A stretch of 64,000 nt of DNA from a virus (lineage: Duplodnaviria; Caudoviricetes): IMG/VR virus record IMGVR_UViG_3300029928_000002, positions 32,001 through 96,000 of that record, one strand, 5' to 3'. Below, one piece after another: positions 9,172 to 64,000 of this stretch. The translations under genes and the position numbers were made by a program. How positions within the stretch are numbered: the first letter of the stretch is position 1; the number at the start of each line of letters is the position of its first letter. The notes under the pieces were generated by a model. It was not told the DNA's origin and searched no databases. It saw only the letters and a list, made by a program, of their open reading frames with translations.

Positions 9172-9313
9172 TTAGTATAGAGAAATACTAAGTAGATTAG
9201 AAAGGGGTTATATGGATTCCTTGGATGATTTGGTCACCAATTTATTACTCCATAAATATAACCTCTCATGTATTATAAATTAGGATATTCATACTGATGA
9301 TTATATAGAATGA
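9149..9313 (+). CDS. Small hypothetical protein (54 aa)
   Basis: MSEKQIVDQYREILSRLERGY... fills the gap between the paralogs; three TAGs. Confidence 0.5.
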
Positions 9314-9326
9314 CTTATGTGATAAA

Positions 9327-33921: not shown

Positions 33922-34224
33922 ATGAATTTGTAGTTTAGAAAATTTCAAGATGGCGGTCAAGTAACTCCAGATTAGAGTGCTGACCAGTCTCAACAAGAAC
34001 AAGCCGCTCCCCAAGAAGGAGGTCAGCAAGATCCTATGGCACAATTGATTCAAGCTGCTGCTCAGGCAGTTTAGAGTCAAGATTGTCAAACAGCTATGCA
34101 AGTTTGTCAAGTACTTGTTCAGATGGCTCAACAAGGTAGTGAAGCTCCTCAAGAAGGTACTGCTGATTAGGGAGAGCCTGTGTACAGAGCAGGTGGTAAA
34201 CTTCTTAGACGTATTACTTTGTAA
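33922..34224 (+). CDS. Small Gln-rich cargo-type protein (100 aa)
   Basis: RKFQDGG at the N-terminus, QDCQTAMQVCQ core, YRAGGKL at the C-terminus; followed by a terminator. Confidence 0.75.
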
Positions 34225-39359: not shown

Positions 39360-41230
39360 ATATAAATTTTAAAAAGTTCTAGAATGGGGGTTCAATAGCC
39401 CCCTTTCTAGCCTCTTATACACCAGTACAAGTAAATACAACAGCAGCTGACCCTGCTTTATCTTTATTTGATAATACTGGCAATTCTACAGCAACTACTG
39501 CTAAAAGTTCTGATAGTATTGACATGAAAGATACTATGGAACTATTAAAAAGTATGAGAGGTTTAGATACTGATGTATCTTTAGTTAGCACTACCCTAGC
39601 TTAGTAGGCTAAAAGAGATGCATTGTTTGGTACAGGAGATCCTGTATTACAATATTATAAGAATATAGATTTAATAAATAAAGTTATTGAATCTAAAGAA
39701 GAATATAAAGATGCTTACGATCAGGCTAAAGCTCAAGGAGCTTTGTCTGAAGCTGCTATTTCATCTGACGGTAGGGTGGTAGTTAAAACTTAGAAAGGAT
39801 ATAATTTAGTTACTCCTAGACAAGCTTTAGCCTTATAGGCACAAGGGGTAGCTGCTATATAGAAGAACTCAGATTTACTTAAAGCTCGTAGACACGACCC
39901 TTCTTTAGCTTTATAGAATGAAGTGTTATCTATAGTTCAAAACAGTGTATCATTTACAACTGTTAAGAAGACTGTAGATTCTATTGTAAAATAGTTAGGT
40001 AAATCTACTGTTACACAAGAAGGCTATAGTGCTAGAGAAGGTAACTAGATTCAAGCAGGTATTGCAGCTATTAAAAATGCTGGAGTAGGCCCTATGGATG
40101 GAGTTTATAAGGTAACTTATAAAAATGAAACTCAAGAAAAATAGGCTCAAATGGCTTTGGATGCTGTATATAGAAATCTAAATGATACTTAGAAAGCCTA
40201 TCTATAGTTAAATTCTGGAGGTACTCCAGAAGGAGTTTATGGCCTGTTAAAAGAAATGATATTAAGCCAAACTTCTTCCTTGCAGGAAGTTAGGTCTAAA
40301 TATCTTAAGCCTACTAATACTTCAACTGGTAGTGGTTCTTCTAAAGGAAGTAGTGCTTAGAATTCTTTAGGAGATGTCAAGATGGATCCGGCTGTCCAAT
40401 TTGCTTTAGGATATGGTACTAAAGAAAAAGTACCTATTATGGGTAAGGGACAGATAGGTATAGATGTTACTGCTAATTCTATTGCTATGTAGGATGCTCA
40501 AGGCAATCCTCAAGATATGCTTACTTTAGGACAATTAGTTAGCGGTCGTCTTGGAGGTATGTTTGTAAAACGAGCTTCTATGGACGGTGCTATGTTATCT
40601 CCAGATTCTCTTAACAAAGTTGTAGTAGATGGAGGTAGAGTTTATTCTACAGAATTACCAGTAGATAGGTAGGCTTTAGCTAAAGGTGTTGTCAGACCAG
40701 ACTTTGGATTACTTAACAAAATAGAACAAGCTAATAGCTAGTTAGGTAATCTTGGCAGAATACCACAAGATCAATTAACTCCTGCTTAGAAGACTTAGAT
40801 TAATAAAGTATATCAACGTAATGGTATTGCAGCTAAATACGATGTAAATGGTAATCTTACTTCTGAGTATAGAAGATTTGCTGTAGTGAATGGTACTGCT
40901 ACAGAAAGAGCTTTCCAAGGAGGGTAGCCTAACTTTACAATAGAAGCAGCTGAAGCTGATGATCAAGCTAGAAGTAATTATGTAGATAATATCAAACAAC
41001 TTACTCAAAACAAAGACTTTAAGTTGGATAACGGTTGGTTCGGAACATTTGGTACTGAAAAAGTATATAAAGGTACTATCTTTATTCCTATGAGTAGTAA
41101 TTTTGTAGATTACTATACAGGTAGTGGTATAAAGATGTCTGCCAATCAGTTTGACTAGATATAGCAACTTCAAAATCATAAAGATTAGTTATTAAGTAGG
41201 TATAATAATCCTGGTAATTTATCACAATGA
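39356..41230 (+). CDS. Virion cargo protein (624 aa)
   Basis: Starts MNINFKKFQNGG; invisible in the ORF track because of dense TAGs; ATGA overlaps at both ends. Confidence 0.75.
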
Positions 41231-44200
41231 TTCAGTAGAAAGAAAATGATATGTTGCTCAATGTTCTTGAAAATCCGTCATTTAGTATTGCGGATTTTCA
41301 AGATATTGGGCTTGATGTAAATAATACTTCTTTACAATCTAAAGATGTATATAAGAACAGTCAACAGGTTACTAGCAATCCTGCTGTACAAGATAATAAC
41401 GGAAACTTAGATACTGCTAAATTAGATGCAATTTATAATACAGCTACTGCAGTTTACAATACTATGGCTCAACAGGGTTACGATAAAACTCAAGATGTAA
41501 AGACATAGTATAGTAAATATGATATATTTGCACCTGATGATTAGGTAGATTGGGCACCTCAGTTTAATATTAATACTCATGAAGTAAACCCTGATAGGAC
41601 TACTTATTCTACAGTAAGGTTTGGTGAGCAAGGTGAGAGAACTAAAACTCCACAAGAAATAGCTCAATCTCAAAAAGTATATAATCCGGCTACAGGAGAA
41701 TGGGAGGCATCTCCAGAAGAATCATTCTTTGGTAATTTTAAAGATGTAAGGGCCTTAGCTTAGTACGATGAAGATGTTGATATTAATGGTAAGACTAAAG
41801 GGCAGACAGGATTTGATGCTGATAATATAGCACATCATGCCGGAGAACTAAAGATAAATCCGGATACTGGTACATATTATTATGAAGACCTTAATGGTAG
41901 AAATATTAGTGGTAGATAGCTTTTACATATATCTGACGTTCTTACTAATGAAGACAGCCCAATAAATGCTATTGACTTCTTAGATAGCGATGATATTCAT
42001 AAATCTGCTGTAGGTTCTTTTGTAAAGAATGCTGCTTTAGTAGGTAGTATGTTTTTACCTTATGTAGGACCAGTAGTTACTGGTGCTACTATAGTACAAC
42101 AAGCTGCTTCTTTTGGAGCTACATTGGGTAAGATACTTACTTCTTCTGACAATGCTGCTATGAATTATTTATAGGGTATGTCAGAAGCTACCAATTTCTC
42201 TAGAACTAGATCTGAATATGCTTCATAGAATATGTGGTCTCTGGAGAATTTATTTGGAATGATTGGAGATACTGTAGCCCAACTTAAGCAGTAGAGAATG
42301 TTGTTTGAACAACTTCCTAAACTTGTGGGAATGGATGGTAGAGTTCTTTCTGCTAAAGGCTAGCAAGCTATGTAGGACGAACTTCTAGCTAAATACAATA
42401 AATCTGGAGTTTTGGATAAAGCTATTCAAGACAAGTTTAAAATGCCTATGAATGAGCTTTATAAAACCAATCCTGCAGAGTTCATGAATGCTACTGAGTA
42501 GGTAAGATTAATTAATAATCTCAAAGCTGCATAGTCAATAGAGAATTATGTAAAGGATTATTATAATGTTGGTGGAGTTTTGTCTAAGGCTTATATGACA
42601 ATGCTTACTGTTAATGACACCTATCAAGAAGCTAAAAATGCCGGAGCATCCGATTCTTTAGCTGCACTTACTACTATGGGATATGCTGCTGCTGAGTATG
42701 CTTTATTAAGTACAGGATTAGGTGAATGGATTTTGCCAGAACTTAGAGCTTCTAGAATGTAGAACAAAGCTATTGTAAAAGCTCTAACTAAAGATACTGT
42801 ATAGGCTTTCGAATAGGCTAATGCTAAAGCTATAACTCCAGAACTCAAACGTAGTTTATGGGCCAAGACAATTAACTTTGGTAAAAAGCTATTTAATGCT
42901 GATTATGCAGTAGGTAGATAGGGAACTTTGGGTAAAACTATTGCTTCTACTGCAGCTTCTGCCTTAGGTGAAGGTACTGAAGAAGTAAGTGAAGATGTAC
43001 TTCAAGACTTTGTAAAGAGAACGTACAATTTCTATAATGAAATTAATGGCTCCTCTTCAAGAATGCATACCGAAAATTGGAAAGACCAATACTTAATGGA
43101 TTTCTTGGGAGGTGCTTTAGGTGGTGGTATAGCTAATGTATCTATTAATTTTAAAACTAATAGAGAAGCTAGTAATATGACTACCGAAAAAGCTGCTCAA
43201 CAACTTGTGTATATGAGTAGAAATAAAGAGCAGCTTAATGATTTCTATAAGGTATTGGATAAAACAGATATTGGCAATAAATATCTGTCTGCCACCAAAA
43301 CTGTAACTGATTCTAATGGAAATGTTATAGGTTATGAACAAGGTACTAAAGACGATAATCAGGATAAAGCTATTAAAGATTTAGTACGTCAGAATTTGGA
43401 TTTAATACAAACTACTTTAAGTGTTGATGGGGCAGATTTAGATGATAAATCTTTATTTGATGCTAATACTTTAAAAGATTTACGTTGGCAGTATTTATAT
43501 AACAGTACTTCTACCGCAAATCTTATACAATCATTTAATACTTTGGCTACTAGAGCTTTAAGAATTCATTCTGATATTGCAACTTTGAATCAGAAATTAC
43601 CAGACCAAGAATATAAAAAGGATGACCCACAATATCAAGATATACAAAAAGCTATACAATCTAAACAGCAAGAACTTACAGATGTTTAGAATCAAATTAA
43701 AGATTTAAGAGAAGGTAAAAAGTCTGCCTTGTTTATGGCACAGGCTATACTTGAAACTACTCCTTATGTATTACAAGGATTTGATAAAGCTGCTACATTC
43801 CAAGGATTTGCTGAAACTAATAGTGGAAAGAAATATGAAGATATTTCAGACGATGAATTAAATAGTTTAAAAACTAAATATCAAGATTATATTAATGGGC
43901 CTAAAAAAGAATATGTAGCACAAGCTACTAATCAGTATTTATATGCTACAAGACTATTTAGTAATAAGTTACAAGAAGTTTCGGATACTTACACACGGTT
44001 AGTTGATGAAGGGTAGAAAGAGTTAACACAACTATCTGATACAGTTAACGCTCTAACCGAATTATAGAATTTATCATAGGAAGATCCCGATAAGTTTTTG
44101 GAAGTATCTTAGAAAGTCTAGGATCGTATTAAAAACTCTGTTGCTTTATCTAAAGAAGACTTAGATAGGTTAGATGCTTTAGCAAAAGCTAATGATAATT

Positions 44201-47200
44201 ATAATGCTGAAGAGACTCCATCTAATCCAAGCGAACAGGCTTTAAATCTTGGGGAAGAACCTTTATTTGGGGAAGAACAACCTTCAACATCTCCCGATAC
44301 TTCTAAAACAGCTACTATAAGTGATGTTGATTCAGCCCTAACTAGCAAAATAACAGATACGGATACTATAGATAGTTCTACTTATGCAGAAGCTGTTTAG
44401 CGCATTCTCAGCGATGCTTATAGTAGGAATTTAGAGGAAACTGTTAACAGATTAACTTCTATAGGTTCTATACCGGCGGATTTAAAATAGAATTTAGTTA
44501 AGGTTATATCTAAAACTAAAGATTTTATTTTCGGAAGACTCGGTAATCTTAGTTAGGATATGATTCAGATTGGTAATTGGAATCTCATCAATGAAGTTAA
44601 TAGTAAAAATAAAGAGTTTGTAGACAACTTGGATAAGTTGTAGAAAATTGTAGACAACTTATCCTATACTCCAGTAATGGATATTTTAGACAGTTATAAC
44701 TCTGCTATAAATGGAAGTCCTATTAAAATATCAGAAGTATTTGAAAAATTAAAAGCTCTTGAGAGTTAGAGTAGTTCTGATGTATCCCAATTCTTATTAG
44801 ATGATGATTTATCTAAACAGCTGAATCAGGCATCTGTTATACTGGATTAGGTACAATCGATAGTTAGTGGTGCTAGAACTGATGATGCTGCTTTAACTAT
44901 GGTTGATGAGAATACCCTATAGCCTAAAGATAATATTTGGGGTATTAATAAGACCTTAAATGATATAGCTAAAGCTAGTAAAGATGATTCTTGGAAAGAT
45001 CTACCTGCTATTAGTGGATCTGTGGCTGATGCTATATATACTGATATACATTCCATTAAGGTAAGATTGGATTATTATAAAACCCTTTACGGAATAAATA
45101 GAGGATAGAAATTAAATTCTTAGAGTAGAATATCTGTTAATTCATCATATTTAAATTATAAGAGAGTTAAACAACTTTCTGATATAGTTCCAGACGATTG
45201 GGATAAGTCTGATTTAGACACCATATTGCCAACATTAGTTACATTAGAAGCTAATTATAATTCTGGTAATTTAAATCTTGATAAAGATACATAGATTAAA
45301 TTAAAGAAAGAATCCATATAGTTAGAAGATGCTATTTATGAATTTTTCTAGAAGAATAAAGATAAAGATTTCTCAGAACTGTTTAATGAGAAGTCTTATA
45401 AACTTCTTACTGAAAAGTACACCTTGTTAAATGAATCTACTACAGATATTGATAGTAATTCATTTATGGGATGGTTGGCAGCAAAAGCTTCTATTAAAAC
45501 TTCATCCTTCTTAAAAGGATTGTATGGAATTAATGATACTAAAATAGTTCCTCTAGATCCATAGATTTAGGCTATATAGTTAAGTGTAGCAAATATTATT
45601 AATGGAAATACTATAAGTAAGTTTGTTCAGGCTGCTAAAGATGCAACAAGGAAATATATAGATAATTTATCCGTTTCTGAGAGATATGAGTATTTTAAAT
45701 AGTTATATCCTAATAATACTACTGTAGCGGCAATATTATCTACTGAGAGAGGTAAACAATTATTCTATACATTCTCTTCTTTTGCTCCACAGTATTCTAA
45801 TATAACTTTAGTAGAAGGACAGGCAGGAGCAGGAAAATCCTCAGCAGTACTTAAACTTACTTCAGAATTTATATAGAAATATTATCCAGATGCTCTAAAG
45901 AATGCCTGGACAGCAAATACAAGTGAAGATACTGCTACTAAACTTAGAGATAACCTAGGAATTAAGGATGGTAAAGTGTTTAGTAGAGAATCTTTACTAA
46001 AAACCGTATTAACGGATTATACTACTCCAGATATTAATGCTGATGGTACTATAAATACTTCTAAAGATACCAAACCTAGGATAATTTTTGATGATAGTGG
46101 ATTACATCATAATTATACTCTAAATGATAATACTACGGAAGTTCCTAAAGTTATATTTATAGACGAAATAGGTAGATATACTTGGGATGAGGTAGATGCT
46201 TTAAATGATTGGGCTGCTAAAAATAATGTATCTATTATAACTGCAGGAGACTTGCATCAGTCTCAGACTGTTTATGACATAGCTTTAAAAAATATAAATG
46301 GATGGTCTAATTATAAAAATGATATTTAGAATGAAATAGCTAGCAATAATTTAATACATCCTAAATCCAAAACTTTGGTAGATAGTATTAAAACTGATAC
46401 TTCAGCTATTTTGTCTATACAAAGCAATGCTTTCCTACATACTCCAAAATTAGGATCTTCTCTCAGAACTGCAAACAGTCAGCAAGATGCAAATCAACAA
46501 GTTGTTGACAGTGTTCTTGATAACATAGATTCTTATAACAAAGAATTAACTTTACATTATTGGGAATCTGATACAGAACTTCGAGGAACCAAAGTAGTTA
46601 TTGATGATGTCAAGAGTGTTGAGGAATCCTTAATTAAGATGATTGCTAAATTAGGTAAAGATGAAAAGATTGGCTATGTATATAATGATACTAAATCAAA
46701 ATTATACCAATTAATTAATTCCACACCTAAATACAAGGATCATATTGAATTTTATAAAGGTAATTCAGCACAAGGATCTGAAGGAAGATATTGGATAATA
46801 GAACCTAATACCAAAGCATCTGAGTATCCTCTAATGTAGGACATATACACCAGTATTACTAGAGCTTAGGAAGGAAGTGTATTAGTATTTGCACATACTT
46901 ATGGAGGTCCTAATGTAAAACTTATATAGAGTGTACAAGATAAAGAATCACAAGTACTATCGTTCAGTGATTCTGATAAAGCTAGGTACACTAGACGTTA
47001 CTTAGACATAAGTAATGCTGCTTTACAATCTTTCACAGATACTGCTTTACCTAAATATCAAGAAAGAACGAATAATTCTTCAACTAATACTAAATCAACT
47101 TCAACTAAAGCTGGTGGAGTTGGTAATGGTAATGGTACTGGAACAAGTGGTCAAGGAACAACTGGTAATGGTGGAACACAAGGTGGAACACAAGATGGAA

Positions 47201-50200
47201 CACAAGGTGGAAGTACTTCTTCTCAAAACCCTGCTCCTGCCCCTACACCAAAACCAAGTAATCCTAAAGAATATGTTACTTCTATGGCTAATTATAAGGA
47301 TAAATATGGAGTAGATTGGAAAGTTCTTTTAGATGGATTGGCCGAATATACAGCTGAAAAAGCAGCAAATGGGCATATCATTATTTCTTTCCCTAGTCCG
47401 ATGTAGGTTTAGTGGGGAGTTATGATTGGTTCTTTAAATGGATTAGACATAGATCCCGTATCTAAAGAAACAACTGCTATAGGATTACAGCATCCTAAAG
47501 ATGGTAAACCTTATATTCCTTAGGATTCTAATTTTGATGCATTTTTAGCTCAATAGGTATAGAATTTAGGTATTCAACCTACTACTTAGCCAACTCCAGA
47601 ACCAACTCCAGAACCAACTCCAGAACCAGAACCATAGTCACAGCCGTAGCCCGCACCGCAACCTTCTTCTAAACCAAAAAAGAAACGGCCTGTAACTTCT
47701 AAAGTAGAATGGAGTGAATTAGACCCAAATGCTTATACTGTAGATACATCTTCAGAAGATACTAAAATTACATTTAACAATAGTGTAAAAATTTCTAAAG
47801 CATGGTCAAACTAGTATATTAATGGAGGCAATTATTCAAAATTGTATAGTATTTCTATAACTCCAAGTAACTTAGTTAAAGCGACCTTTACAAAAGGCTC
47901 CAAATATACTACTAAATATACAGATGCTACTCTTGGCGATATTTCTAGTTTGGAACCTGAATTACAATCTTTTATAAATAATATATTAAATTCTAAACAA
48001 TATCCTGCAGAATAGGGACTATCTGATGATGATGCTCAAAAGCAGGAATTGCATAAAGCTGATTCTGAAGACAATAATATCTAGGAAATAATTGATTAGG
48101 CAGAAAATTAGTCAGTATCCGGAAATAACAGTGCTGTTCGAGATTTCTTCTTCATGGATTCTAGTAAAACTTTTGAAGTTGGTTGGGTTAAAGATAATTC
48201 TGGAATTTATAAACCATCTTCTTCAAATGAGAAGACATATAATAGAATTGATGGATTCAATGGATTATTTAATGCTAATGGTACTTGGAAGAGTGTATAT
48301 AAATTTAATGATAAAGGAAATGATACTCTACAAAAGAGACAAGAAAAGGCTATTAAATTAATAGGACAGCTACGCCAATTCGCCTTTAATATCAATAATA
48401 AGTAGCAGTTAGTTGAGGTAATAGCTAAAGCTCTTAAATTAGAAAAGAGTAATCCTTATGTTACATTTGCTATAAAATCTGGAGATGTGGTTTCTGTCAA
48501 TGGAGATAGTAATGGACATCATATAGCTTAGAAAAGCAACTTTAACAAATTCGATAAGGATTCTGAGGAAAAAACTCTATACAGCAATAATTCCGAAAAA
48601 GTATATAATCGTAACTTAGTTATGATTATAGGTAATGGTGGATAGGATGTATTAGAAATTCCATTACTTAAATTAAATTCTCCCCAAACTAAAATACAGA
48701 GTTTGGGCGATAATTTTAAGGAATTGTATATCAATACTTTAAACGCCTGTAATGGAGATGAGCGACAGGCTTTAATCAAAATAGCAGCAAATCCTCTTAT
48801 AAGAGACCATTAGGATATAGTAGACTGGATTAAGATATATACTAATACCAACAATGTTAGGACTATATATTATTAGAATGATCCTGACTGGACATTAGGA
48901 AAATTCTCCAATCTTGGGCCTCAGTATAATGCTGACAGAGGACTAGGTTTTTATGATGCTAACTAGAGTTTACAACAAACTAGAGATTTAACACCTTTAG
49001 AATCTATACAACGCCCTGATATAATAGTATCTGACGTACTTTCTTATATTAGTAATAGAGGTAAAACAGATGATGGTGTAACTTTAGTATCAAATCCTGG
49101 ACACTTATTTGTATTATATTCTTCAAATCCTAGCTACAATACTACAGAAAAACTTGTAAATAGGTATGTACAATGGAAAACTTAGAAAGCAAAAGGTGAA
49201 CCTTATATTCCAGATGTTCATATTAAATATATATCTACTCCTAAAGTATCTATCGACAACTATTTGGACAGCATTGTTAATATTACTATTAAAGGGTAGA
49301 AAGGAGTACCTATTTTAGGTAATGACAAAACTTCTTACCTAGTATTGAAGAGTATTTTCTTAGACAAAGGAGGTAATCCAATAAATGATGCTGGAATTAA
49401 AAATTTAATTGAAAAAGGTTGGGGAACTAAGGCTGCAGATAGTGTATATAATTTCCTTCTTACTAAAATATAGGAACTAAACACACTTCCCCTACCGCAG
49501 TTAATGAAGCGACTAAATTAGGTTGAAGACTGGAGTAAACCGAACCTAAATTAGGTTGAAGACTAGAGTAAACCGAACGGACTTCCCGGAGGATTTGGTT
49601 ATTCTGGAAAGAGTTTATCAACTTAGTTTATGTCAGTAATAAGACAGTTAATTGCTCCAGTAACAATAAAGGAAGATAGCTAGGGTAATTTCACAACAAA
49701 ACCTGAAGTCAACACTGATTGTAGAGAATTATTTGTTAACTTATTTAATAAATCAAAGCAACAGCTTTACTTCCAATCTAGACTTTAGAATTCACAAACT
49801 GCCAATGTAGGAAATACCTTATTTAAGAGAGTACAAACTGATCCTAATAATAGGTTTAGAATTAAATATGATGGAGGTATATAGAATTTAAAAACATAGT
49901 TTAATATATATGGGGATTTAGGTTCTAATGCATTTATTACAGACGATTCTTTTGGGGACTGGTTACATACTATTGCTGGTAGAATCGAACGGAGTAAGAA
50001 GGGAATAGAAAGTGATTTTGGAATATATATGGACGGACATTCTAATATTGCAAATTCCAAAAATACTGCTACACCTTCTTGGAATAGTTATTCTTAGAGT
50101 ATATTGAATGTCTTAGACAGCAGCTTTAAAAAAGGAATTGTTCCAGATTCACCTAATAGTTCTCTCACTGATGCTTAGATTTGGTCTATTAAAGAGGAGT

Positions 50201-50934
50201 TACGTAAAGGTAATAAAGATCTACTAATATTTACAAGTGGTAATAAAGCTACTCCTATAGTATTTGATACTGGAGGTCTTAATTTGTAGTTTATTTAGAA
50301 CGGAGAACCTACTTATAGACTACCTATAACTAGTAATGATTCAAACTTCGATGCTATAGATGGTATTACTAAAAAACACTATACAGTATATTTTAATTCA
50401 AGTACTGGTGAAATACGTATAGTAGATCCTTCAAGCATTCAGAAAAACCCTGCTCCACAAACTACTCAGTAGAAACCTTCTTAGAAGAAATCTACTAAAG
50501 AATAGAAGCCATAGCAGCAACCTACTCAAGAATTCAACAAAGAATTTTTATTAAACGATAATACTTTATCGGCATATAAATTATTATTAGAAAATGTATT
50601 AGGTAATGTCGGAGGAAAAGTCAGAAGTTTTAAAGAATTTGTTAGTTCAGCTTCAAATAAGAGTGATATATCTGAATGGAATACTTGGTTATAGGACAAA
50701 GGAGGTATAAGAGCACTTTAGAGGTTTATTATAAATACTTTAACAGTTGCTAAAACCACTAATCCTGGATTAATTACTGAAGAAGATAAAACTACTAAAT
50801 ATAACTTGGATAATGTGTCTCTTGAAGGCGACTACAAGGAAAAAGATAAATCTTTAGCTAAACAAATTCTTTCAAGTATATTGGAATATGAGAACAAAAA
50901 TATATCTTGTTCAATCGGAACTGTTAAACATTAA
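41227..50934 (+). CDS. Giant cargo protein with embedded SF1 (RecD-like) helicase domain (~3235 aa)
   Basis: Seven track ORFs in frame. EGQAGAGKS (45814), IFIDE (46153), AGDLHQ, SLRT, AQGSE and YTSITRA motifs in SF1 order. Confidence 0.78.
47587..47640 (+). repeat. Pro-rich coding repeat (PTPE)n
   Basis: ccaactccagaa x3 within a low-complexity linker after the helicase domain. Confidence 0.75.
49513..49578 (+). repeat. 33-bp tandem duplication with one mismatch
   Basis: ctaaattaggttgaagactggagtaaaccgaac followed by ctaaattaggttgaagactagagtaaaccgaac. Confidence 0.9.
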
Positions 50935-50939
50935 GTAAT

Positions 50940-53900
50940 ATGAATATATGTAAATATTCACGTGATTCATTCCAAGAGGATTTCGAGAATAATCTCGAAC
51001 CTCTTTGGAGTGATTCTCTTGTAATTAAAGATGCTGCCGGCAATGAGGTAGCCATAACAGATAATATAAGAAGAAATTATATAAATAGATTGATAGATTA
51101 TTTAGGAGGTTCTTACAATATTAAAGGTAATTTTTCAGATGCAGTAGAAGCTATACAAGAATCTATGGAGAATTACCTCGATGAACCTCTCCAACTGCCT
51201 GAAGAAGATATAGAAGCAGCTTTAAATCGTCACAGCATTACTTCAAGAGACTAGTTAAATGAAGATAGTTCTTCAACTAAATTGGAAAAAGATGATGAAA
51301 GAACTGCTTATAAAAATTCATTCAAGAATATTTATCTAACTAAATATTTTGGAAAATGTATTCCTGCATAGAATTACTGTACAAAACAGGCAATTAAAGC
51401 TATTGTAGACAGTTGTATTATTTCTCCAGAATATGATGATTCTGGAAATATTATAGCCAGACATATAGTAGTCGATGACAAATAGTTAAATAGAAATATC
51501 AGAAATATTTAGGAACAGTTATATCAAAACATACTTAAATATTTAAGAACTAGATTTTCTAAGAATATTGAAAAGGTAAACAGTTTACCTCAATCCTTAT
51601 ATTCTCAAGATTAGTCTGTATATACTGGAGGATTTGAGAGATTGAATGAAGAATTTGGAGATGTACTAAATCCAGATTCTTTTAACAGTTCTTATTTGGA
51701 CAATTTGTTTGTAACCTATAGTACAGCAGTTGGCCTTAGTAAATAGATTACTAAAACTGAAATAGATGGATATACCTCATGGGTAATGTTAACTAATTTT
51801 GATTCAGTACTTAGAGGAAATTTGGGAAGTTCTATATTTATAAATAGTACATTACCTGCTTTTAACCCAGAATCTGCTACAGGAAATCTTGATAGAGTTA
51901 AATATTCTCTCACCAAGGCTAAAGCTTCAAACATGAATAAATCATGGAGAACTTCTGAGGATATAGATGTTTCTGACGAGATTAGTAATGTAGTACAAGT
52001 ATTGATAAATAATATTCCATTTAAAGGAAGTGATAGAAATATTAGGTTTAATGAATTTGGATATATTATAGGAAAATTAAAAGACTTATCTTATCATATA
52101 AATCCCACTGCTAATTAGGTAGAATTTAATGATGATTTATATGTGAAAGATATATTAAATGGTGAATATATTAAAATATCTGACAGAACTAGGAATCTAG
52201 TTGAAGGTGACACTTTCTTTAAAATATTAAATAGTATATAGACTTCTGCACAAGAGTATATTCCAGCAATATTTGAAATATTAAGCAATGACGACTTACG
52301 AGGAAAATTAAAAGAATTGATTCAGGCAGATTACCAACTGTCAGACTTTGATGTAAATCTAATTAAGTCACTTTATGATGGATTGTTTAATCCTGATAGT
52401 AAAACCTCATTACTATATGCTAATGATGTAAGTGGTTACGATGCATAGAATTATATGGGTTATATTACTCAGGCTTGTGATGGAATTTCAAATGCTAGAT
52501 ATATTCAATATTTTAGAGACAGTGATGGAAATATTTATGCCCGAAATTTATATGACCAAACATTGGACGGTATCCAATCAGATATTGAAAATAATATATT
52601 AATATCTAATTCTAGGGATATTAAGCCTTTTGATTTTGAACATTTCCACGAATTTTCGGTTGAAACTAAAAAAGATGAAGATGGCAATGAATCGATAGTT
52701 TCTATAAGATTTAGAATTAATGATAATAAAGAGTATATAGTATATCCTAATAATAATAATGAAATAGTTACTAATGATGGAGTACGAACCTCTTTAGACA
52801 AAGCTGACTTTGATGATGTAAAGAATATCGTACAGGAAGTATTACATTAGAATTTTGACACTAATGATGAATATTATAAATCATTATTAATAGCATATAA
52901 TTAGCAGGAAGGAACAGCTTTATAGGACTTGCTTACTCTTTCCGGAAATGCTGTATTAAATCTTTATATATCAAATAAACTATTAATAGATTCTGATAAG
53001 AATCCAATTTATAATACTAGAGAGATACATGATGTTTTAAAGAATATATATGGAGAAATATCTAGAGGTAAACTTACCTCAAAAGCACCTAAGTATAATA
53101 AAAGTTTAGGTTAGATATATCTAACTTCTCAATATGACTATCCAATACTAAGTAAGTTAGCTTTAGCTAAAGCATTATATACTGGTAGAATAACCTCTTC
53201 ACAAGTACGAGATGGTAGTGGTAACGCACTTCCAAGCACTTCACTATCCCGTCTTTTAGGAAATATTCTACAACAATATTATACTAAAGGACTTACTGTG
53301 GATTCTGTTGTGAATAATGTAGCTCTATTCAAACCGGGAGTTTTACAAGGAGTATTTTAGGCTAAAGAGTTTAATAATAAATAGTAGAATACTTCTACAG
53401 CTCATACAGAATTTAATGCTGCTGAAATAGAATAGTCATAGTTATTTTATGATTTCTTACTAGGATTGCAACCCAAAATAAATAGTAGAACTCCTATAGG
53501 TGATGGTAAAATAGGTATATTACCTTCAGTCAATTCGGATAAATCTAATATAGGGAGAATTATTGTAGATTTAAATAGAATACTTATAAATGGTTAGTCC
53601 CTATATAAATGTTTGGTAGACACCTTTGGTAATGTACGTGAAAATGCTGAGGAAGTATTAGATTAGTTTATCTATGATGAACTGGGAAACAATAATGGTG
53701 TATATACAAAAATTATTGCAAATATCAATGCAAAATGGGATAAAACCTAGTAGGCTATAAATGAATATCTTACTCAATTTAATAGTCCTTATAGTAATAT
53801 TGCTGGAGAACGTACAGGCAGTATTATGGATAAATTGAATTAGGTTTATATTAAAAGTGACCGTACTATACAGAAACCCGCTGCTTTTCTTAATGATGTT

Positions 53901-56900
53901 ACTCGTTGGTGGAATAATAAACATCCTAATGATATTATAGAATTGACCGAACATTCTACTTATGAGGTAGATAAATCTTCTGGAATATTATTACAAAATA
54001 TTCTGTTAAATACTATGAAAAGCAGATTGAGCAGCACTACTTCAATACATTCCTTCTTTAACCGGCAGAATGGAAAACTTTTAAGAGATTTATTAAAAGA
54101 TAACTTTGATGGCGGTGGGAAAATATATATAGGACTTGTCGATTTATCAAGTGGTAACAAAATAGTGGTACATAATATAAATGATTTATATTTAAATCTC
54201 AATAAAATTAATACTGCTTTTAAGTCTACTCTAACTACATCTTCATCTTTAGATGACATATTGAATACTTTAGGAGGCAATATTACATTAAATCCTCTTA
54301 TAAGTATATATAATAAATTGAATTATATATTCTCTTAGGAATGGATGATTTCTAATGTAGGTGGGCATTTCAACCACCCTGCTAAAGCTTCTATAGATAC
54401 AACTTTATTTAGAACTGTTCCTCTTTCTGCATCAGAGTTGTCGGAGTTGGACAATCTTACGAAGGTTAATAAATAGAATAATATTCGACTGGCATAGTTA
54501 TATAGACAGTATGGATATGATGATAATGCTTTTAAAGAAGCGGTTATAGATAAAGTACGTAAAGTAAATTCTAAATTTGGAAATACTAGAAAAGCCTTTG
54601 GAGAAGATGCTGTTAATAAATTCTTATAGAAAAGGCATGATGCAGAAATTTTGGATGAAGCTGGTAGATTTAATTCTCAGACAAAACGTAATGTATCATA
54701 CACTGCTGCTATGCATCCTTATCAACTTAAAAGTTTACAAGGAACACCAGATGTTGCTAATGTTGTAGTTATGAAACAACCCTCCACAAAAGTATATACA
54801 GTAAATGGTGACTATACCGATGCGTGTATATCGGATGGTGGTACGTTCATAAATCCTTGGATGGCTTATTGGGAAAATGGTGCACTAGGTTCTGAAAAAG
54901 TGGGTATAAATAAGAAATAGTATATACATTTCTACAAACAGGATACTGGTACTGGTGGTATGGTAAAAACCGCCGGATATGCTATGACTAATGAGCTTAT
55001 GAGGCTGTCTCCATGGTAGCGAAGAATGACTAGAATGATGGCAGATAGAGCTTGGAGAGATGAACAGGGTAATACAATATTTTTAGATGTAACTAAAGAT
55101 TATAATAATAATAAAATTCTGTTACAAAATAATAATGATATTCAAGGTTCTTTCTTTATTAAAGTTGGAGATGATTATTACAAATTCTTACAATTAAACT
55201 ATAAAGGGAAGGGACGTTATACTAGAACTCTTTAGAAAATAGATCTAGAAACTCTAACTGGTAAAGAAACTAAAGAATATGATTTAGAAGGCAAGGTAGT
55301 TACTGACACAAATGCCGGAACAGTAATTGATTCTAATTACAAGTTATGGCAAATGCTTGGAGGATATGAATGTTACGAGCAGAAATCTGGAATGAATAGA
55401 CTAACTCATTCTGAATATAGTATTAAAGCAGTTGCTGATATTGCTAATAGAGTTGGTATAAAAAAAGTTCCTGAGGGAACTACTGTACGCACACAATCTG
55501 ATTTATATCAGGTTATGAAACATTCGGATTTTCATTACGTCTGTGACGAAGGTAGTGTAAAACATGGAGAGGCAGGAGTTGAAGACCTTACACCATATCT
55601 AAACGGAAGTAAGCCTATAGAAGACTTCAAGCCTAACTTTATGCATGTTCCTATGGAACAATCTGGTATTCAGTTGGATAAGGAGCATAATGCAGACTAG
55701 GAATCTTTATCTATATTTACTTAGGTTATTAGTGCTTGTGCGGCTAGAGGATATACAGCAGATAAAGCTCAGAACTTATATAAATCTTTAGCAGCTTTAG
55801 CTTATAATGCTACAAAAGAATATCAAGAAGTTTTTGATTAGTTCTTGGAAAATCCCAATGTGTATAGAGATAGCTTTTAGGAAACTATTGCAAATCTATG
55901 TGCTAAAGCCTTAATGAATGAAAAGAATACTTCTGATGTATTGAATTATGTTGTAAGCAATCTTATTAATTTAGCTAAACAAGGAGAAAGATTTAAATTT
56001 AAGGACAATATTCCATTCAGCGATAATTCTATATATAATAAATTAATATCTACTATAGGCTCTACACTCACTAAATCAGCTATTAAAGTTAAATTGCCTG
56101 GACTGTTAGCAGTGTTGTGTCCAAGTAGTGGAATTGTTAAACTTTATGGAGATAGGTTGCTTAGTTCTTATAAGCCTGGAGAATTAGAAGCTCTACAAGT
56201 AGAAAAGAATAATAACCCTAATTGGACTATTACTGATGGGACGATTACTCCTACACAGTTATCTAGAACATATACTCTTACTGTAAATCCCGGACATGAA
56301 GAAAGCATAAGTAATGTTTTAGGTATTACTCCTAATTCTAATACTATAGACTTTACTTTATATACTCCAGTTGAAAGAGAAAAACTGAAATAGTTAATTG
56401 CTCAAGGAGATATAACTAGTATTGTAGAAAATGTAATGGTGGGTAGAGATTTATCTGCTTATGATGTTTTCTTTAAAGGTACAGATGCTGATGGAAATAC
56501 TTAGCAATATTCTTTATACGATTGTGATGTAATTAAATAGAGATTTGCAGATAAAGAATCTGTAAGTGATGAAAATTTGCAATATTTATTAAATGTGTTA
56601 TCTCCTTCATCCTAGGCATACGATGTTGGAGATAATGCTGTTACAATAAATGGGCATGATATTACAATAGATAGAAGTTCCATACAAGTTAAACCTTATG
56701 AATTAGTAATACCTAAAGTATTTGCTACCAACTTTGGATTAGATTTTGATACTGATTTACACGCAATATTGCAAGATCCACAATACTTTACTAAAAGATT
56801 AGCATCTAAGATAGCGGATACTATTGATGATTCTTATTATAGTGTAGCATTTACAAGTCTTGGAGGAGATCCTGTATATGTATTAGATAGAAATAAAGCC

Positions 56901-59900
56901 AAATCCTCTGATAATTTTAAAAGAATAGATGTAAACACTGCAGTAGATAAGGACGGTAATGTAGACATACTAGATGACAACTTTAATAAAGTATTAACAC
57001 TATCTAAAAATTAGAACGATATTGAATAGGATCCAGATTTACATTAGGATGAAGTATGGCAATACGTTGATGGCTAGGGCCTTACACATAATGTAATAGT
57101 TACTGATGATTTAGCTTATTATGCTAATAATACTAAATGTAATGGAATTAAAGTTGGAGAAAAGAATTATGATGATTCTACTGAAGATTTATTAAAGAAT
57201 TCCAAAAATAAAACTGTATAGAATTGGTATTGGACTATTGCTAAGAGTGGAAGTATTACAGCAAAGAGTACATTTAAAGACAGTGTACGTGCTTTTAATG
57301 CCTTGCTTCGTAATGTTACAAAAGAAGGATATACCAGTAATAACTTACGTAATAGTTCTATAATAAGCAATCTTGCAGATTAGGGAACAGAAATCTGGGA
57401 ATCTTTCAAGAAATCATTAGATGTTGTTGCTGCTCGTATTCCTGCTCAATCACTACAGTCAGTAATGGCAATGAAAGTAGCAGGATTTATTGATAGTGAC
57501 GTTAATACAGCATATGTAAGTACCTTGCAGACTTTTTTATAGGGTTCCGACTATAAATAAATATTGTAGTCTTTAAATTTCGTGAACTGCGGGAAATTCC
57601 TTAGAGCTTATTTATACTAAAATATATTAGAAATAATTATATTGGTCATAATTAACTGTTATGAGTATAGTAAAAAGTAAATAAGATTGGACAATCCGCA
57701 ACTAAGTACCTTAATTTAAATTGAATTTATTAATGTGCTAATGCTATTTAAAATATAAATTTAATTATAAAAAAGGTAAAAGCTCATCGACTATCCCTTT
57801 ATGGGAGTAGCTGGAAGCATTTTACTTTAAAAAATAAATAATAGTAACAAATAAATTATAAAGTAAAATGGTTGTCCAGCGAAGTGCGAAACATTCTAAC
57901 AAGAATGATGATATAGTCAGTTTTGTATTGAAAGATACAATGTAAACGGATATTGACGCTGTATCATTAGCTATGTATGCTTTCGATAAACAAGGAAAGT
58001 TTGTATAGTGGTCTCCTTACTTTAATCTAAGTAGTGCAGATACTTTACAAGCTTCTTTGCAATTACCTTTCCCTACGGGAAAGATTTTAACTTCTACAGA
58101 TGTAAGATTTGATTAGAGAAATCCAAATAATATTATGTACTATATTAGTACCTCTAATAATCCAGATGATTCTAAACCTTTTGTATTATATAGAGGATAG
58201 GATGGAAGTCCTAAAATAAAATATAATTTAGATAATCCTACTAATATATTAACATTGGCCGGATTCCTAGATTATATAAATAACTATGGATTTGTCTTTA
58301 ATAGTGGGGGCTTGTCAGAAAAAACATATGGACAAGTTGCGGATTTATTGCTTCCTATAATTAATAACCATAATAATTATATAAATACAGTTAGAGATAG
58401 CCGTACTAAAGAAGATATGATAAAAAATAGTATATAGTAGGCGATCTTTGATATTGTATTGGATCCTAAAAACTAGCGTGAAGCACAAACCTCTGTAGAT
58501 ACTGCTACTAAATTAGCCAAAAGTGTTGCTAATGGTAAGACAGAAATAGCATCTCCAGAAAATGAGGAAGCCATAAGAAATACTCCAGGAGCATTCACTA
58601 CTAATATTTATGGATTTACTTCAAATCAAGTAGGTAAAAAAGCAATTGGTATTGCTGCAGCTACTGGATTAAAAGCCTATTTTACATTAACACAATACTG
58701 TAATAATCTTCTTAAACAGGGGAATGAGAATGCTTTAAAAAGACTTAGATTTGATGTAGAAATTGGAGGTGAGGAATATCATACACTCTCTAACATATAT
58801 ACAGATAAACCAAATTCTTTTGCAGAAGAATTAATAAATCTTGCTAAAAATGACTAGGATTTTGCTCTACAAATATCTGTAATGGAATCTCTTTCTACCG
58901 ATAATGCTAAAGAGCTTTGTCTGTCTAAGTTAAATTGTACTACAGATACTATGGGATTGTGGCTATATGGATTAGCTATAGGTATGGATTTTAAAGATAT
59001 TGCTAAAATTATGATGTCTCCAACAGCCTTCTCATTAGCTAATACTATGAGAGGTAATGTATTTAATGGAGATACTGCTGTATCTATTAATAGGTTAGGT
59101 AGCTATGTTAATGACGGCCCATAGAGTTCTACAGCCCAGAAAATTATTAAGAAAATTATTGGCGTAAAATACGATTTTTCAAAACCTTTGTACGAAAATT
59201 TTAAAAATCATCTTGGTACTCAAGAGGACAGTGAAGATACTGATACTGAAATACTAAATCTACTTCAAGCTGATTTAAATAGTGTATCTGCTTCAGATGG
59301 TAAGGGAATTACTCATTAGGAATATTTGGATTATGCAAAAGGTGTAGATGAAATAGTGTAGTGGTTGCGGTTGTATAGAGAAGTAAATAACAATCATAGG
59401 GTATATGAAGATTTTATGCAGTTAGCTAAAGGAGCTTCTGAAATGTTACAATTAAGTCAAATATTACATCTAAATCAGGGACTATTTAATTCTGATACAG
59501 ATATTTTAGCTTTTATAGATAAATTCTCAAACCTCATAAATGATAGAAGGTATCAAAATAATCCCAAAGAGATTATTCCTAAAGAATCCAAAGTTACAAT
59601 AGATTTACATCAATTTGTAACTAATCCTAAATATAGAAATGATATTATTAACGCCTATGAAGATGTAAAAGTTTCTTTCAATATATTAGATGTATTGGCT
59701 AATATGCCTACATATTTCCAATATTTAAAGACATTGGATTTGCAGCACGCTATGAACTATAATATTTCTAGTAAATATAGAGCAATGACCGATATTGGCA
59801 AGAGAGCTGTGAATTATGTAGGAGCACATAGTGCTAAAGATGTTCAAAAGGTATATAAAAGAGTATCTAACTATATAGATATTTACACTGCTGCTAAATG

Positions 59901-61155
59901 GATGCTTGAATCTGATTATAATCCTGCCTAGTATGGTGATCATGGTATTAATATATACTTACCTATAGGAGCATATTATTATATTCAAGATGTATCGAAT
60001 AATAATATTATTACAAAGCGTAGAGTGACAAAAGGAGAACGTGAAGATATTTTTGGAGAGAAACATATAGTTAACTCTTTGCACGGTATGCCAGTAAATT
60101 TAGGTACTGCTAATGGTAGAGCTTCTTTTAAACATTGGATGGAATCTACTGTAATACCTAATTTACAAAAAGGTAGAAATGGTAAAAGAGGAGCTAATAA
60201 TAAATATATTACAAACCCCAATTCTCCATTAAGATCTAATCTATTTATATAGAGATTAGGAGTAAATCAATTCACTAAAACTCCTATGGGAAATCCTATA
60301 TTAGGATATGCTTTGGATATTAATATGTCTCCAAGAACTGACCATGAAATTGAACTTTTATATCTATATAAACAACAATTTAATAAGTTAAAAACTTATG
60401 GAGAATATAGTAAATATTATACAGGTACACATAGTTACGATTTAACAGAATTATTCTTCCTATATAATTTATGTACTTATCAAAATAAACTTGGTGAAAA
60501 TACTCTGACAACGATATTTTAGGATAGTAGGGATTGGGGAATTATAGGAGACTATTATAAATATATCAATACAATGGATCGTTCTAGAGACGTTATAGCT
60601 CCAGAAATTTCTGACATTGTTCAATATATAGCTCCTATAGCCAATAAATACAGTACTAAATTAAAAAACTTCCTAAGTGTTGATTCTATAACAGGAGATG
60701 TTGTTGTGATGACTAGAAAAACCAAGGCGGATATTGAAGTAGAGTAGGAATATACTGATCCAAATGCTAAAATAGATCCATTTAGGGCAACACCTTTAAC
60801 TAGAGATGTAAATTATCCTACTTTGGAATCCTTGAATAAAGTAATAAATATTCCAATACTTGATAAATCCGAAGACTCCGATGTTAAACTTAAGAATATT
60901 CCTAAGAGTAATTAGTCGTATGAGGATGAATCGGGTAACGTGATTGATATACGTAATATAAAGATAGAACATACTAACGGAAGTATTCTTAAGATTTTTG
61001 TTAATGATAAATAGATAAAAATACCAAATGAATATTTGAAGTATTTTACCCATATCCCAACAAAGCTATAGTATTTTGGAAAATTACCAAAAGCAGTAAA
61101 TGATTATGGAACATTAGTCGATGATATAGTAACATTAATATCAAGAGTATGTTAA
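50940..61155 (+). CDS. Virion DNA-dependent RNA polymerase (two-barrel), exons 50940-57554 and 57949-61155 (~3273 aa)
   Basis: SDGGTFINP, GIQLD, ARIPAQSLQS and spliced QGSDY|DID catalytic DxDxD. The frame change across the 394-nt intron matches the track ORFs on both sides. Confidence 0.88.
57555..57948 (+). mobile_element. ORF-less group I intron (394 nt, IA2-like) in the RNAP active-site codons
   Basis: P1 gactat/gtagtc with U.G; P10 aatatt/gatatt. Core actgcgggaa, aatccgcaac, gctcatcgacta, atgatatagtc (57908); P7.1/P7.2 hairpins; terminal G at 57948. Confidence 0.92.
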
Positions 61156-62243
61156 ATTGTATTAACCCTGAGTTAAATCAGAAAGTTCATGACTTACAAA
61201 AAAAGTCTGGACTTTCTGATTTTCCATTACGCAGTTAGATAAGACATTATCTTACAAATCATAATGGTAGATTACCTGAATTAGATGAATTAAAAGGAGC
61301 TAATTCTGAGCCTTACTTATACAAGGATTTAAATCTGCCTAAAGGAGGAAGTGCTGATATAAAAACTTTGCTTGAAAAAACAGGTGCTCAAACTTTCTCA
61401 GATGCTATTATTAGTCTAAATAATACTTATAGAGATTTAGAAATTGAAGGTCATGAGTTAAATAATGACACATATTACCTAAAAGTTAGACATAGGCCAA
61501 CAGTAGATAGTAGTATGTTAGGAGTATTTGATGATGCTCAAGTATCTCCAAATGTGAATGTTGTAGATGACCATACATTAATTGTACAAACTGTAAATAA
61601 ATTGGCAAGTTTATATGGAATAACTATACATAGAGTAAAAGAGGATAAATTACCGCAAGGTTCTAAGAAAGGAACTGTTAGAGGATATATTTAGAATGGG
61701 GAAGTATATATTGTAGAAGGTAATAATGGAGTAGATACCAAATTACATGAAATGATGCACTTAATATTGGGCAGTGTAAAATTTCAGAACCCATCTTTAT
61801 ATTATAATTTAGTTGCTATGGCTCCTCAATTTTCTGGTTTTAAAGAATGGGCCAGAAACTACGTAAGTACATATGGAAAAGATACCTTAAATGATTTATC
61901 TGAAGAATTTATGGTAAGCAAAATTGCCAACTATTTAAGCGGTTAGAGTAACGATACTCAATTAGCCTCTATGATTAATAATAATCCAGAAATGTGGTAT
62001 TAGACTATGTACCATATGAATAGATTACTAGATTCAGTGTTTATGGGAGGGGCTTCTGTTAAAGCAATTCCTGCCAGTAATCTATATAACTATACGTTTA
62101 GGCAAGTGGCTAATATGGTTAATTCTGCAGTAATGTAGAATAAATATTATGGCAGTCTAGATGATGCTTAGACACACCGTATAGAAATGAATCTTAAAAA
62201 GCACTATATGCAAAATGATAGATTGCTAATGAAATGTGAATAA
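61149..62243 (+). CDS. Zincin-like metallopeptidase-domain protein (364 aa)
   Basis: RGYIQNGEVYI...DTKLHEMMHLILG (HExxH) with a downstream SEEF candidate third ligand. Confidence 0.78.
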
Positions 62244-62254
62244 ATATTTTAAAT

Positions 62255-64000
62255 ATGTTAACTTGTAAATATACTTTATTAGATAAAGACAAATAGTCTA
62301 TAATTGGAGAATTTGACACAGAGGCACAATTAGACGACTTTTTAATAAAATAGGATGAATGTAATAATAATCAGAATATATCAGATATAGTATTTTCTAG
62401 AAGTGCTCCAAATTTGAAAGCTCAACAAATTCTTGAAGAATAGGCAGTTATCTCTAAAGAACTTGAAGAGAAAAGATTGTTATGGAGTAAAGCTATAAAA
62501 AATGCTGTAGATGATGATTCTGAAATTATCCTTATGGCAGATCCTCCATATATTGGTGTTACTAAATTCTTAGATGGTAGAAGAAATAATGAGGGAGATC
62601 TACTTACTCCTGAATTTATTAGTGAGAATTATTGGGGGAATAGAAAATCCCATTGGACATCATAGATTCCTGCAGGTTAGAGTATCAAAGATATGTTTAA
62701 TGCTCAAGAAATTAAACTTCTAGCCGACGGAAATACTGACGAAGAGAGATATTAGAATTTCTTACAGAGTAGAACGTCTAATGGAACATATCAACCCCTA
62801 ACTCAGCAGGAAGCAGATAATTTTTAGAAGACTATTTTAAAGAAATGGGCATTTATAAATACAAGAGGTACTGCTATACACTTTGTAATGTAGCAATATT
62901 TCAGTCCGTTAATAGGTGCTGACGGTAAACCACTTACTAAAAATGGTAGAGTTTTTAGAGTGTTTGACTTGACAAATTCTCCACAAACTTTAAGTGGCGT
63001 CAATTTTCCATCTATTACTGATTATATAAATCGGAAAATTAGTACTGATTTGAAATCTTAGATGGGCAGAAAATTTAGTCCGGATCTAATTACTCCAGAA
63101 TTACTTTAGAATGCTCTAAATTTTGCAGAACAGTTCCACGAGCATATTAAAAAAGTGTTAGGACAAACTGAAGATTTGGATTTTTTCCCTGAGTTCAAAA
63201 TAACTGGAGATTTACATACTACTCAAGGCCCTCCAAAATTGATGGGTATTATCGACTTATTGGTATTGGATAATAAAGGAGTAGCTCATATTTTCGACTA
63301 TAAATGTTCTGATAAGAAATACTCCGATTTTAGTGAGGCGAAGAAAAGAGGATTCTATTATCAGCAGGCTATATATAACAGACTGTTAAATCAACATGGC
63401 CTAAATACCTATAACAACAATATTAGAATTGTGCCTATTGCTTTAGATAATTTTAGAGGTGAGAATATAGAATATACTTTATCGGATCCAGATAAAGTTG
63501 ACTTTACTTTTGACAATAAGCTCTATTATCCACCTCAGATGTCTGTAAATATCAGACCTGATATTACTTCTGTAAACTCTAAAGGTGAATCTAGAATACT
63601 TGATAATATAGATGAGTTTTTACCAGAATCTACTGTTACTAATATAGCCTCCGATAAAGCTGTAGAATTTGTAACCACCATGATGGGTAGATTCTTTCCC
63701 GACTATTCTGGAGGTAAAGAGATAAATGAAGATCTTATTGAGCAGGAAATAAAAGATGCTGGAGGTTTTGAAAGAGATTCTGAAGGTAAATATTCTTTTG
63801 AAGTATCTGCATATAAGAAATTATCTTTTGACGATCCTAAGAAACTGTTAGATGCGGTTATAAAAGAGAGAAAGTATCAATAGTTACGTAAATCTCAGTT
63901 AGCTTCAACTACAATATCTGCTTTAGAGTATGCCCAAAAGAATAACACCAAAGATATACAAGATATTATTAAAAATATTGATACTAGATTCATTTAGGAT
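62255..64000 (+). CDS. Large virion protein with PD-(D/E)xK (RecB/Cas4-like) nuclease domain (partial)
   Basis: RGTAIH...PE...GIIDLLVLD...HIFDYKCS...YYQQAIY; the frame stays open to the window end with TAG=Gln. Confidence 0.78.

Follow-up and report, generated by a model that had tools for sequence, protein, structure and literature searches.

No viruses are more abundant in the human gut than the Crassvirales. How these phages get protein in megadalton amounts, with the RNA polymerase (RNAP) needed to start infection among it, through their narrow tail is a question posed in concrete form by a block of four consecutive genes within a 64,000-nucleotide stretch of a viral genome (IMG/VR record IMGVR_UViG_3300029928_000002, positions 32,001 to 96,000; the whole stretch is called the window here, and coordinates are those of the window unless another locus is named). 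The block encodes a helicase-like giant protein (giant-1), a virion-type RNAP, a zincin-like protein (zincin), and a giant protein with a PD-(D/E)XK nuclease domain (giant-3). Wherever one of these proteins ends and the next begins, each of the two facing ends carries a cysteine (Cys). A preliminary description of the same DNA had proposed that the termini are joined, and the balance of what follows tips somewhat toward a specific version of that proposal, in which disulfides running from C-terminus to N-terminus would chain the cargo proteins end to end.

With TAG read as glutamine (TAG=Q, genetic code 15) all four genes lie on the plus strand. Giant-1 (41227-50934; 3235 amino acids), the putative first member of the chain, has an SF1-helicase-like P-loop domain (Pfam AAA_30, residues 1524-1682, E 4e-6) and contains three Cys in total, at residues 2508, 2832, and 3228. 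Its N-terminus has none, while Cys3228 (TGT, 50908-50910) lies eight residues from the C-terminus, which reads ...NISCSIGTVKH. The RNAP gene (50940-61155) begins MNICKY, with Cys4 at 50949-50951 (TGT), and its spliced product, a protein of 3273 residues with 19 Cys, ends ...SRVC, the terminal Cys (TGT, 61150-61152) being the last residue. The zincin (61149-62243; 364 residues, with HEMMH at residue 200) has only two Cys, Cys4 (MLNCIN, 61158-61160) and Cys363 (...LMKCE, 62235-62237). Giant-3, which would be the last member, is represented by its 5' part (62255-64000), the gene extending past the end of the window, and begins MLTCKY with Cys4 at 62264-62266. If the Cys of each protein were scattered uniformly along its length, these six terminal positions would arise together with a probability of ~7e-11. 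The QxGG-type proteins encoded upstream (33922-34224, 34284-39359, and 39356-41230) show no Cys at their termini, and Cys is absent altogether from the two large ones. The positions and end sequences given in the preliminary description are correct under code 15, as is its remark that the upstream proteins lack the pattern; its account of the RNAP holds for the spliced product and fails without removal of a 394-nucleotide intron (57555-57948).

The pattern extends across relatives of the window. A database search returned 24 zincin homologues of 76-34% identity, among which C4, C363, and the residues H200, E201, and H204 are invariant. Ten contigs of zincin homologues were combined with 80 IMG/VR loci found with the zincin alignment to give 90 loci, all with the same cargo block; by a first rule 52 of these use TAG=Q and 38 the standard code, with one locus (L019) then reassigned to TAG=Q. 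Clustering of the zincins at 80% identity yielded 41 lineages, in which three joints were considered: J1 between giant-1 and RNAP, J2 between RNAP and zincin, and J3 between zincin and giant-3. At J2 the upstream protein has a Cys within its last four residues and the zincin has one at residue 3-5 in 41/41 lineages, one group reaching it from a GTG start (MDNC). At J3 the zincin has a Cys within its last three residues and the downstream giant has one at residue 3-4, again in 41/41. Both sides of J1 are readable in 20 lineages, all of which place a Cys 2-11 residues from the C-terminus of giant-1, often within a beta-like tail such as CPITIKIKF, and another at residue 3-6 of the RNAP. An apparent exception at J1, in locus L018, was ruled out when it emerged that the wrong start codon had been chosen. 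The claim of the preliminary description that the N-terminal Cys stands at exactly residue 4 is thus true of the window, while in relatives the position ranges from residue 3 to 6.

The outer ends of the block are different. The last giant has a C-terminal Cys (in its last 10 residues) in only 1/41 lineages, the giant-3 C-termini of relatives being acidic and Cys-free, and an N-terminal Cys of giant-1 was seen in 0/8 lineages (six lineages together with the cultured phages crAss001 and phi14:2). Over the final 300 RNAP residues, mean column identity among 38 lineages is 19% and the terminal Cys is the sole invariant column. The preliminary description had set out beforehand a tabulation of terminal Cys in orthologues against the interior frequency. 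In the interiors of the cargo proteins Cys makes up 0.37% of residues (696/187,921), as against 1.94% in 193 neighbour genes of the same loci, of which 6% have a Cys at residues 2-6 and 5% have one among their last four. The terminal Cys are invariant, and the interiors are depleted five-fold in Cys.

Across families there are as many Cys pairs as protein boundaries, be they one, two, three, or four, whatever the order of domains or the state of fusion; the zincin precedes the RNAP in some families and follows it in that of the window, where there are three boundaries and three pairs. Phage phi14:2 has two boundaries and two pairs in gp078, gp077, and gp076, with four Cys in 5398 residues, all of them terminal: the sole Cys of gp078 (1797 residues) is its last residue, gp077 (the vRNAP "gp66" crystallized as PDB 6VR4; 2180 residues) has Cys only at 3 and 2179, and the sole Cys of gp076 (1421 residues, HEIMH at 245) is residue 3. 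The two boundaries of crAss001 also fit the rule, gp47 (2341 residues) having a single Cys at -3, gp50 having Cys5 and Cys2404 (-9), and gp49 (1349 residues) having Cys5 as its single Cys; the two boundaries of DAC15 fit likewise. One boundary and one pair are found in each of five two-protein systems. In p-crAssphage (sequence BK010471) gp45 (1957 residues, with the zincin near its end) finishes ...FSCM and gp44 (4070 residues) starts MSCGN... and has no C-terminal Cys. In the Suoliviridae, cr50_1 gp059 (4774 residues, with fused zincin and RNAP motifs) has three Cys, one of them at -2, and is followed by a protein starting MQC, and the likewise fused cr118_1 gp14 (4946 residues) has five Cys, one at -4, and is followed by one starting MIC. 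Gp32 of Flavobacterium phage FpV4 (4287 residues) has a single Cys at -2 and faces a gp33 starting MAC. Gp32 of crAss002 (2020 residues) also has a single Cys at -2, and the facing gp33 (locus L108, 9088-9190) starts MSC provided that translation begins at the internal Met33. That gene is annotated from MVLDYS..., and reading from the internal Met gives MSCTPS..., like the MSCGN... of p-crAssphage gp44; the annotation probably places the start 32 codons upstream of the true one.

The count also follows the boundary when a protein is inserted and when a reading frame is merely interrupted. A lineage using the standard code (L074 and L081-L083) has an extra ORF (open reading frame) of 333 residues between RNAP and zincin (8199-9200 in L074), with no detectable homologues and with Cys only at C6 and C-2. 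The preceding RNAP terminates in ...YEC, and four boundaries thus carry four pairs, as if the extra protein were a new link inserted into the chain, to judge by its termini. No Cys pair is present at the intron break of the RNAP in the window or in L002, L007, L019, L044, L084, and L085, nor at the internal domain boundaries of the fused cr50_1 gp059. The RNAP of L013 is split into two ORFs (1322 and 1929 residues; 4100-4300), again with no Cys pair at the break; in a tblastn comparison with the unsplit L015 the alignments overlap and fall in two frames, the sign of a simple frameshift from assembly error or recent mutation. A zincin protein of 1352 residues in L084 was considered as an RNAP-zincin fusion and rejected, phmmer showing a zincin in which the N-terminal and middle parts form a large unrelated region. 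The preliminary description had asked whether the pair disappears where two genes are fused, and it does so inside fused proteins and at intron breaks and reappears with the extra protein, one lone Cys in L005 (discussed below) aside.

This comparative pattern favors the end-to-end link that the preliminary description claimed. The sequences show a conserved Cys rule that is coupled to polypeptide boundaries and does not depend on gene adjacency; from it we infer a bond, its chemistry, its partners, its timing, and a role in ejection. In the scheme proposed here the C-terminal Cys of each protein would bond the N-terminal Cys of the next, most simply through a disulfide that arises as the virion matures or later, and separately translated proteins would become a pseudo-polyprotein thread of ~1 MDa with a single N-to-C polarity. 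Because each Cys lies 0-10 residues from a terminus, the joints would be near-linear and able to go with the unfolded chain through the narrow channel of portal and tail, while the purging of interior Cys would prevent mis-pairing or periplasmic trapping. The thread could be ejected N-terminus first, reduction of the joints in the host cytoplasm would free the enzymes, and a disulfide would replace the peptide bond wherever a giant cargo gene was split in evolution. For the broader claim, that crass-like phages build a redox-cleavable pseudo-polyprotein of ~0.7-1 MDa, including the RNAP, which leaves the capsid as one thread, the chances appear evenly balanced. That the Cys pair instead supports true peptide ligation of the native-chemical-ligation type is very improbable.

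What is known of virions and predicted of structures is consistent with this scheme in some respects. The proteins gp47, gp49, and gp50 of crAss001 have been identified as virion cargo by mass spectrometry and are thought to traverse constrictions of <50 Å partly unfolded, and cargo proteins are unresolved in the cryo-electron microscopy structure (PMC10172136). The block proteins of phi14:2 are noted as structural proteins in GenBank. In an AlphaFold2 model of the zincin (mean predicted local distance difference test score, pLDDT, 75) residues 1-4 score <50 and the C-terminal four form coil of low confidence, and in the N-terminal model of giant-3 (mean pLDDT 87) Cys4 directly precedes a beta-hairpin and the first beta-strand. 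In these models the terminal Cys thus appear to sit on accessible ends, outside any core or predicted metal site. A complex prediction for L023, a relative that uses the standard code, with the C-terminal 300 residues of the RNAP, the N-terminal 300 residues of giant-3, and the zincin as partner scored 0.27 (mark 0.32), which speaks neither for binding nor against it.

Could the Cys codons instead reflect a nucleotide or translation signal at gene junctions, such as start/stop overlap and coupling, or chance in an AT-rich genome? In the window the RNAP and zincin genes share an ATGTTAA start/stop overlap (61149-61155; gap -7, shared by many lineages), which fixes the "Cys-stop" of the RNAP to the "Met-Leu" of the zincin and thereby constrains the terminal TGT of the RNAP, and two start regions have the string TGTAAATAT in common. 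Yet the Cys are kept across overlaps and gaps from -20 to +29 nucleotides, many of the gaps being positive: the RNAP of L007 ends ...NPCE at a TAATGG junction that has no ATGTTAA overlap, and L008 has a 20-nucleotide overlap where TGC encodes the RNAP Cys and a TGT in a different frame encodes that of the zincin. Terminal sites use 148 TGT and 16 TGC codons (10% TGC), a ratio resembling that of the interior. In crAss001 gp47, the giant-1 homologue, is encoded on the strand opposite to gp50 and gp49 and keeps its C-terminal Cys; DAC15 has the same layout, with one Cys, at -3, in at least 2034 residues of its gp078. These opposite-strand cases refute a gene-junction signal as the general explanation, and chance has to contend with the joint probability already calculated for the window, so that this account is extremely improbable. 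The conservation across such varied junctions points to selection on the protein rather than the nucleotide sequence. If so, the terminal Cys might still act for each protein singly, by signaling packaging or ejection, by bonding transiently to portal, capsid, or tail, by switching activity in response to redox state, or by marking the protein for the zincin. The internal proteins of phage T4 offer a precedent in their N-terminal capsid-targeting peptides, and short conserved motifs do flank the Cys here (CPITIKIKF-like in giant-1, NPC in the RNAP, MxCxYxYKG in giant-3). Such roles leave unexplained the complementarity of the ends, with a first protein that never has an N-terminal Cys and a last one that lacks a C-terminal Cys in 40/41 lineages, as well as the addition of two Cys with every new boundary and the entire lack of these Cys in the QxGG-type cargo; a role per protein is therefore improbable, if by a narrow measure not the least probable of the alternatives that operate on the protein.

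That standing is shared with, and slightly exceeded by, the same end-to-end link made through a bridging metal, for example zinc held by two thiolates and a nearby terminal amine, carboxylate, or side chains, which is also improbable. A metal bridge could form before packaging in a reducing cytoplasm, no oxidoreductase was found in the genome of the window, and the Cys at J2 and J3 lie 0-3 residues from a carboxylate and 2-5 from a free amine. At J1, however, 2-11 residues separate the Cys from the C-terminus, which rules the carboxylate out as a general ligand; alignments of the termini show one conserved Cys per end with no accompanying conserved His, Asp, or second Cys, and zinc sites with two thiolates are weak. 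Lower still in probability are bonds that do not run head to tail. The middle proteins might cyclize while the first and last pair with one another, which would account equally for 2(n-1) Cys, or each terminus might form homotypic dimers, for which material would be at hand, several copies of each cargo protein being thought present per virion (PMC10172136). Against cyclization, p-crAssphage, cr50_1, cr118_1, FpV4, and crAss002 have no doubly marked protein at all, which makes it impossible in these two-protein systems, and a cyclized chain would have to traverse the channel doubled over its full length; homotypic pairing, for its part, gives no reason for Cys to stand on both sides of a boundary and at neither outer end. 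Two further candidates were discarded. Split inteins or trans-splicing would call for an N-intein of ~100 residues that begins with Cys behind the N-extein and a C-intein whose final Asn precedes a +1 Cys; with only 0-10 residues after the C-terminal Cys and 2-5 before the N-terminal Cys, there is no space for intein halves. A lipoprotein lipobox (L-x-x-C behind a signal peptide of ~15-25 residues) does not match either, since the Cys stands at residue 3-6 just behind the initiator Met and a hydrophobic signal peptide is absent.

Several observations weigh against head-to-tail disulfides. The proposed chain rests wholly on patterns in sequence, and the Cys counts are, as just described, also compatible with cyclized middle proteins plus a first-to-last link or with homotypic dimers. 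Charges of the facing tails are complementary at the zincin/giant-3 joint only (-1.05 vs. +1.15), such complementarity being absent at the RNAP/zincin joint. In L005 (1-10007), giant-1 and RNAP are called as one ORF of 5964 residues, seen in part; RNAP N-terminal homology begins at about visible residue 160 and has no Cys, and the fusion keeps a lone Cys in the giant-1-tail-like sequence KGCVAISS some 100 residues upstream of the RNAP part. FpV4 gp30 (locus L107, 54-1850; 598 residues), two genes upstream of gp32, contains just one Cys, at residue 5 (MKKKC...), and this Cys has no partner, since the preceding gp29 lacks a C-terminal Cys. The compartment of assembly is a further difficulty: the cytoplasm, probably that of an anaerobe, is reducing, and a disulfide made before or during packaging would need help, while thioredoxin and glutaredoxin were not found in the genome record of the window, which is 86% complete. 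A link made before packaging, and hence the stoichiometric packaging that the preliminary description envisaged, is therefore doubtful for a disulfide. A search of the record for Erv1 was blank, as were its controls. Thioredoxin-type genes are annotated near the cargo block of p-crAssphage (gp39 and gp37; locus L104, 24978-26245), and crAss001 gp5 (locus L091, 2271-2468) bears the annotation "ferredoxin-thioredoxin reductase"; such gene products might serve as redox helpers.

The remaining features of the window concern its code, the RNAP intron, and the identity of the proteins. GC content is 32%, and crass-like reading frames are coherent under TAG=Q alone: translation table 11 leaves 30-64 kb without long ORFs, where table 15 gives a series of plus-strand giant genes, and in-frame TAG codons number in the hundreds. 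No tRNA genes were found within the 64-kb window and hence no TAG suppressor tRNA, so that any suppressor would be encoded elsewhere in the 155-kb genome. Exon 1 of the RNAP (50940-57554, plus strand) comprises 2205 codons and includes a DFDTD motif at residue 1935; exon 2 (57949-61155, plus strand) comprises 1068 codons and a stop (TAA, 61153-61155) and ends ...LISRVC. The intervening group I intron, on the same strand, has no ORF and matches Rfam RF00028 over the full model length, with a score below the gathering threshold (28.5 bits, E 6.6e-5). It divides the DYDID motif, which splicing at 57554/57949 restores as LQGSDY/DIDAV, so that the RNAP has the D[FY]DxD catalytic motif in both forms; the same junction is found in the intronless relatives L003, L004, L010, and L011. 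A LAGLIDADG-type ORF of 228-234 residues occupies the same intron site in L001 (98% identical) and in the more distant L002, L007, and L019, and the RNAP genes of L084, L085, and L044 are also interrupted there, in what looks like a presence/absence polymorphism of a homing endonuclease at a conserved RNAP intron site.

Matches to known families are few. A Pfam search of the window proteins gave only AAA_30 and, for giant-3, PDDEXK_1 (E 1.6e-5); the full length of giant-3 is 1697 residues in the 98%-identical relative L001. The zincin had no significant Pfam or PHROGs family, and a PHROGs search with five window proteins returned no match for any of them. Foldseek comparison of the zincin model with the PDB found nothing significant, its weak rows including the zincins PPEP-3 and ArdC, and a profile search of solved structures with the zincin alignment gave nothing below E 0.2. 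Elsewhere in the window, small structural-module proteins encoded on the plus strand at 8524-10076 and 10091-10840 are rich in Cys (2.4-4.2%), unlike the Cys-poor cargo, and include the sequences MGCNCG..., ...YIQSDCNCNKQ, and ...TKYCNVREIDS; they are candidates for disulfide-stabilized tail or ring proteins like those of crAss001.

If cargo proteins are indeed chained through their termini by disulfides, the arrangement would account for the free fusion and splitting of cargo genes in evolution and for their Cys-purged interiors, and would offer a way to set the order of ejection and its stoichiometry. Phage protein ejection would thereby gain a new principle, and phage biology a new covalent device. 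The Cys rule is also of use in annotation: it marks the true starts and stops of giant genes, as for crAss002 gp33, and tells breaks that stem from introns or frameshifts apart from real protein boundaries.

The closest known system is the cargo block of cultured crassviruses. Like the window, phi14:2 and crAss001 encode giant virion proteins, a two-barrel RNAP with DFDxD, and a zincin HExxH module, and they follow the same terminal-Cys rule. They have three such proteins as against four in the window, where the zincin is a separate protein of 364 residues after the RNAP, TAG=Q is used, and the RNAP has a group I intron. HMMER similarity of the window RNAP to those of phi14:2 and crAss001 is not significant, the window zincin and giant-3 could not be mapped onto phi14:2 gp076 by HMMER or hhalign, and Pfam gives nothing for the crAss001 or phi14:2 homologues. 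The literature states that phi14:2 gp65 carries a zincin domain, and this statement together with HEIMH at 245 suggests that gp076 is a fusion of the zincin with the downstream protein. The four window giants are, on the preferred reading, homologues of the virion cargo proteins of cultured crassviruses and, by homology of gene-block organization, are probably packed and injected as well. The crAss001 tail is held by many intersubunit disulfides, found structurally by cryo-electron microscopy between gp57 dimers, fiber hubs, and ring proteins, and thiol oxidation of virion proteins therefore does occur in crassviruses; these bonds join tail and capsid proteins, and no cargo disulfide is reported (PMC10172136). 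Structural and functional papers on crAss001 and phi14:2 do not mention the terminal Cys of the cargo. The preliminary description knew of no such system, and no published account of terminal Cys or disulfide-linked cargo in Crassvirales was found in the full-text literature, most subscription journals being outside the scope of the search; an end-to-end cargo tether is apparently undescribed.

Beyond the crassviruses, two systems share part of the proposed logic. In the Schitoviridae a giant virion RNAP (N4 gp50) and co-ejected proteins (DEV gp71, gp72, and gp73) have Cys suppressed, as in the window; N4-like phages eject proteins with essentially no Cys, a lack that has been attributed to passage through the periplasm (PMC11445570), whereas crass-like cargo keeps an invariant Cys at each internal end of the putative chain. 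The AB toxins, including diphtheria toxin and the clostridial neurotoxins, would be alike in combining disulfide-held chains, unfolded threading, and cytoplasmic reduction. The light chain of the clostridial neurotoxins is itself a zincin. The likeness is one of analogy only, no kinship in sequence or fold having been found (Foldseek gave no significant match). In toxins with interchain disulfides the chains are parted by reduction in the cytoplasm of the target cell (PMC6899712). The chains of AB toxins come from one precursor nicked within a disulfide loop, whereas the proteins of the window come from separate genes with their own start codons and would be linked in series through their ends.

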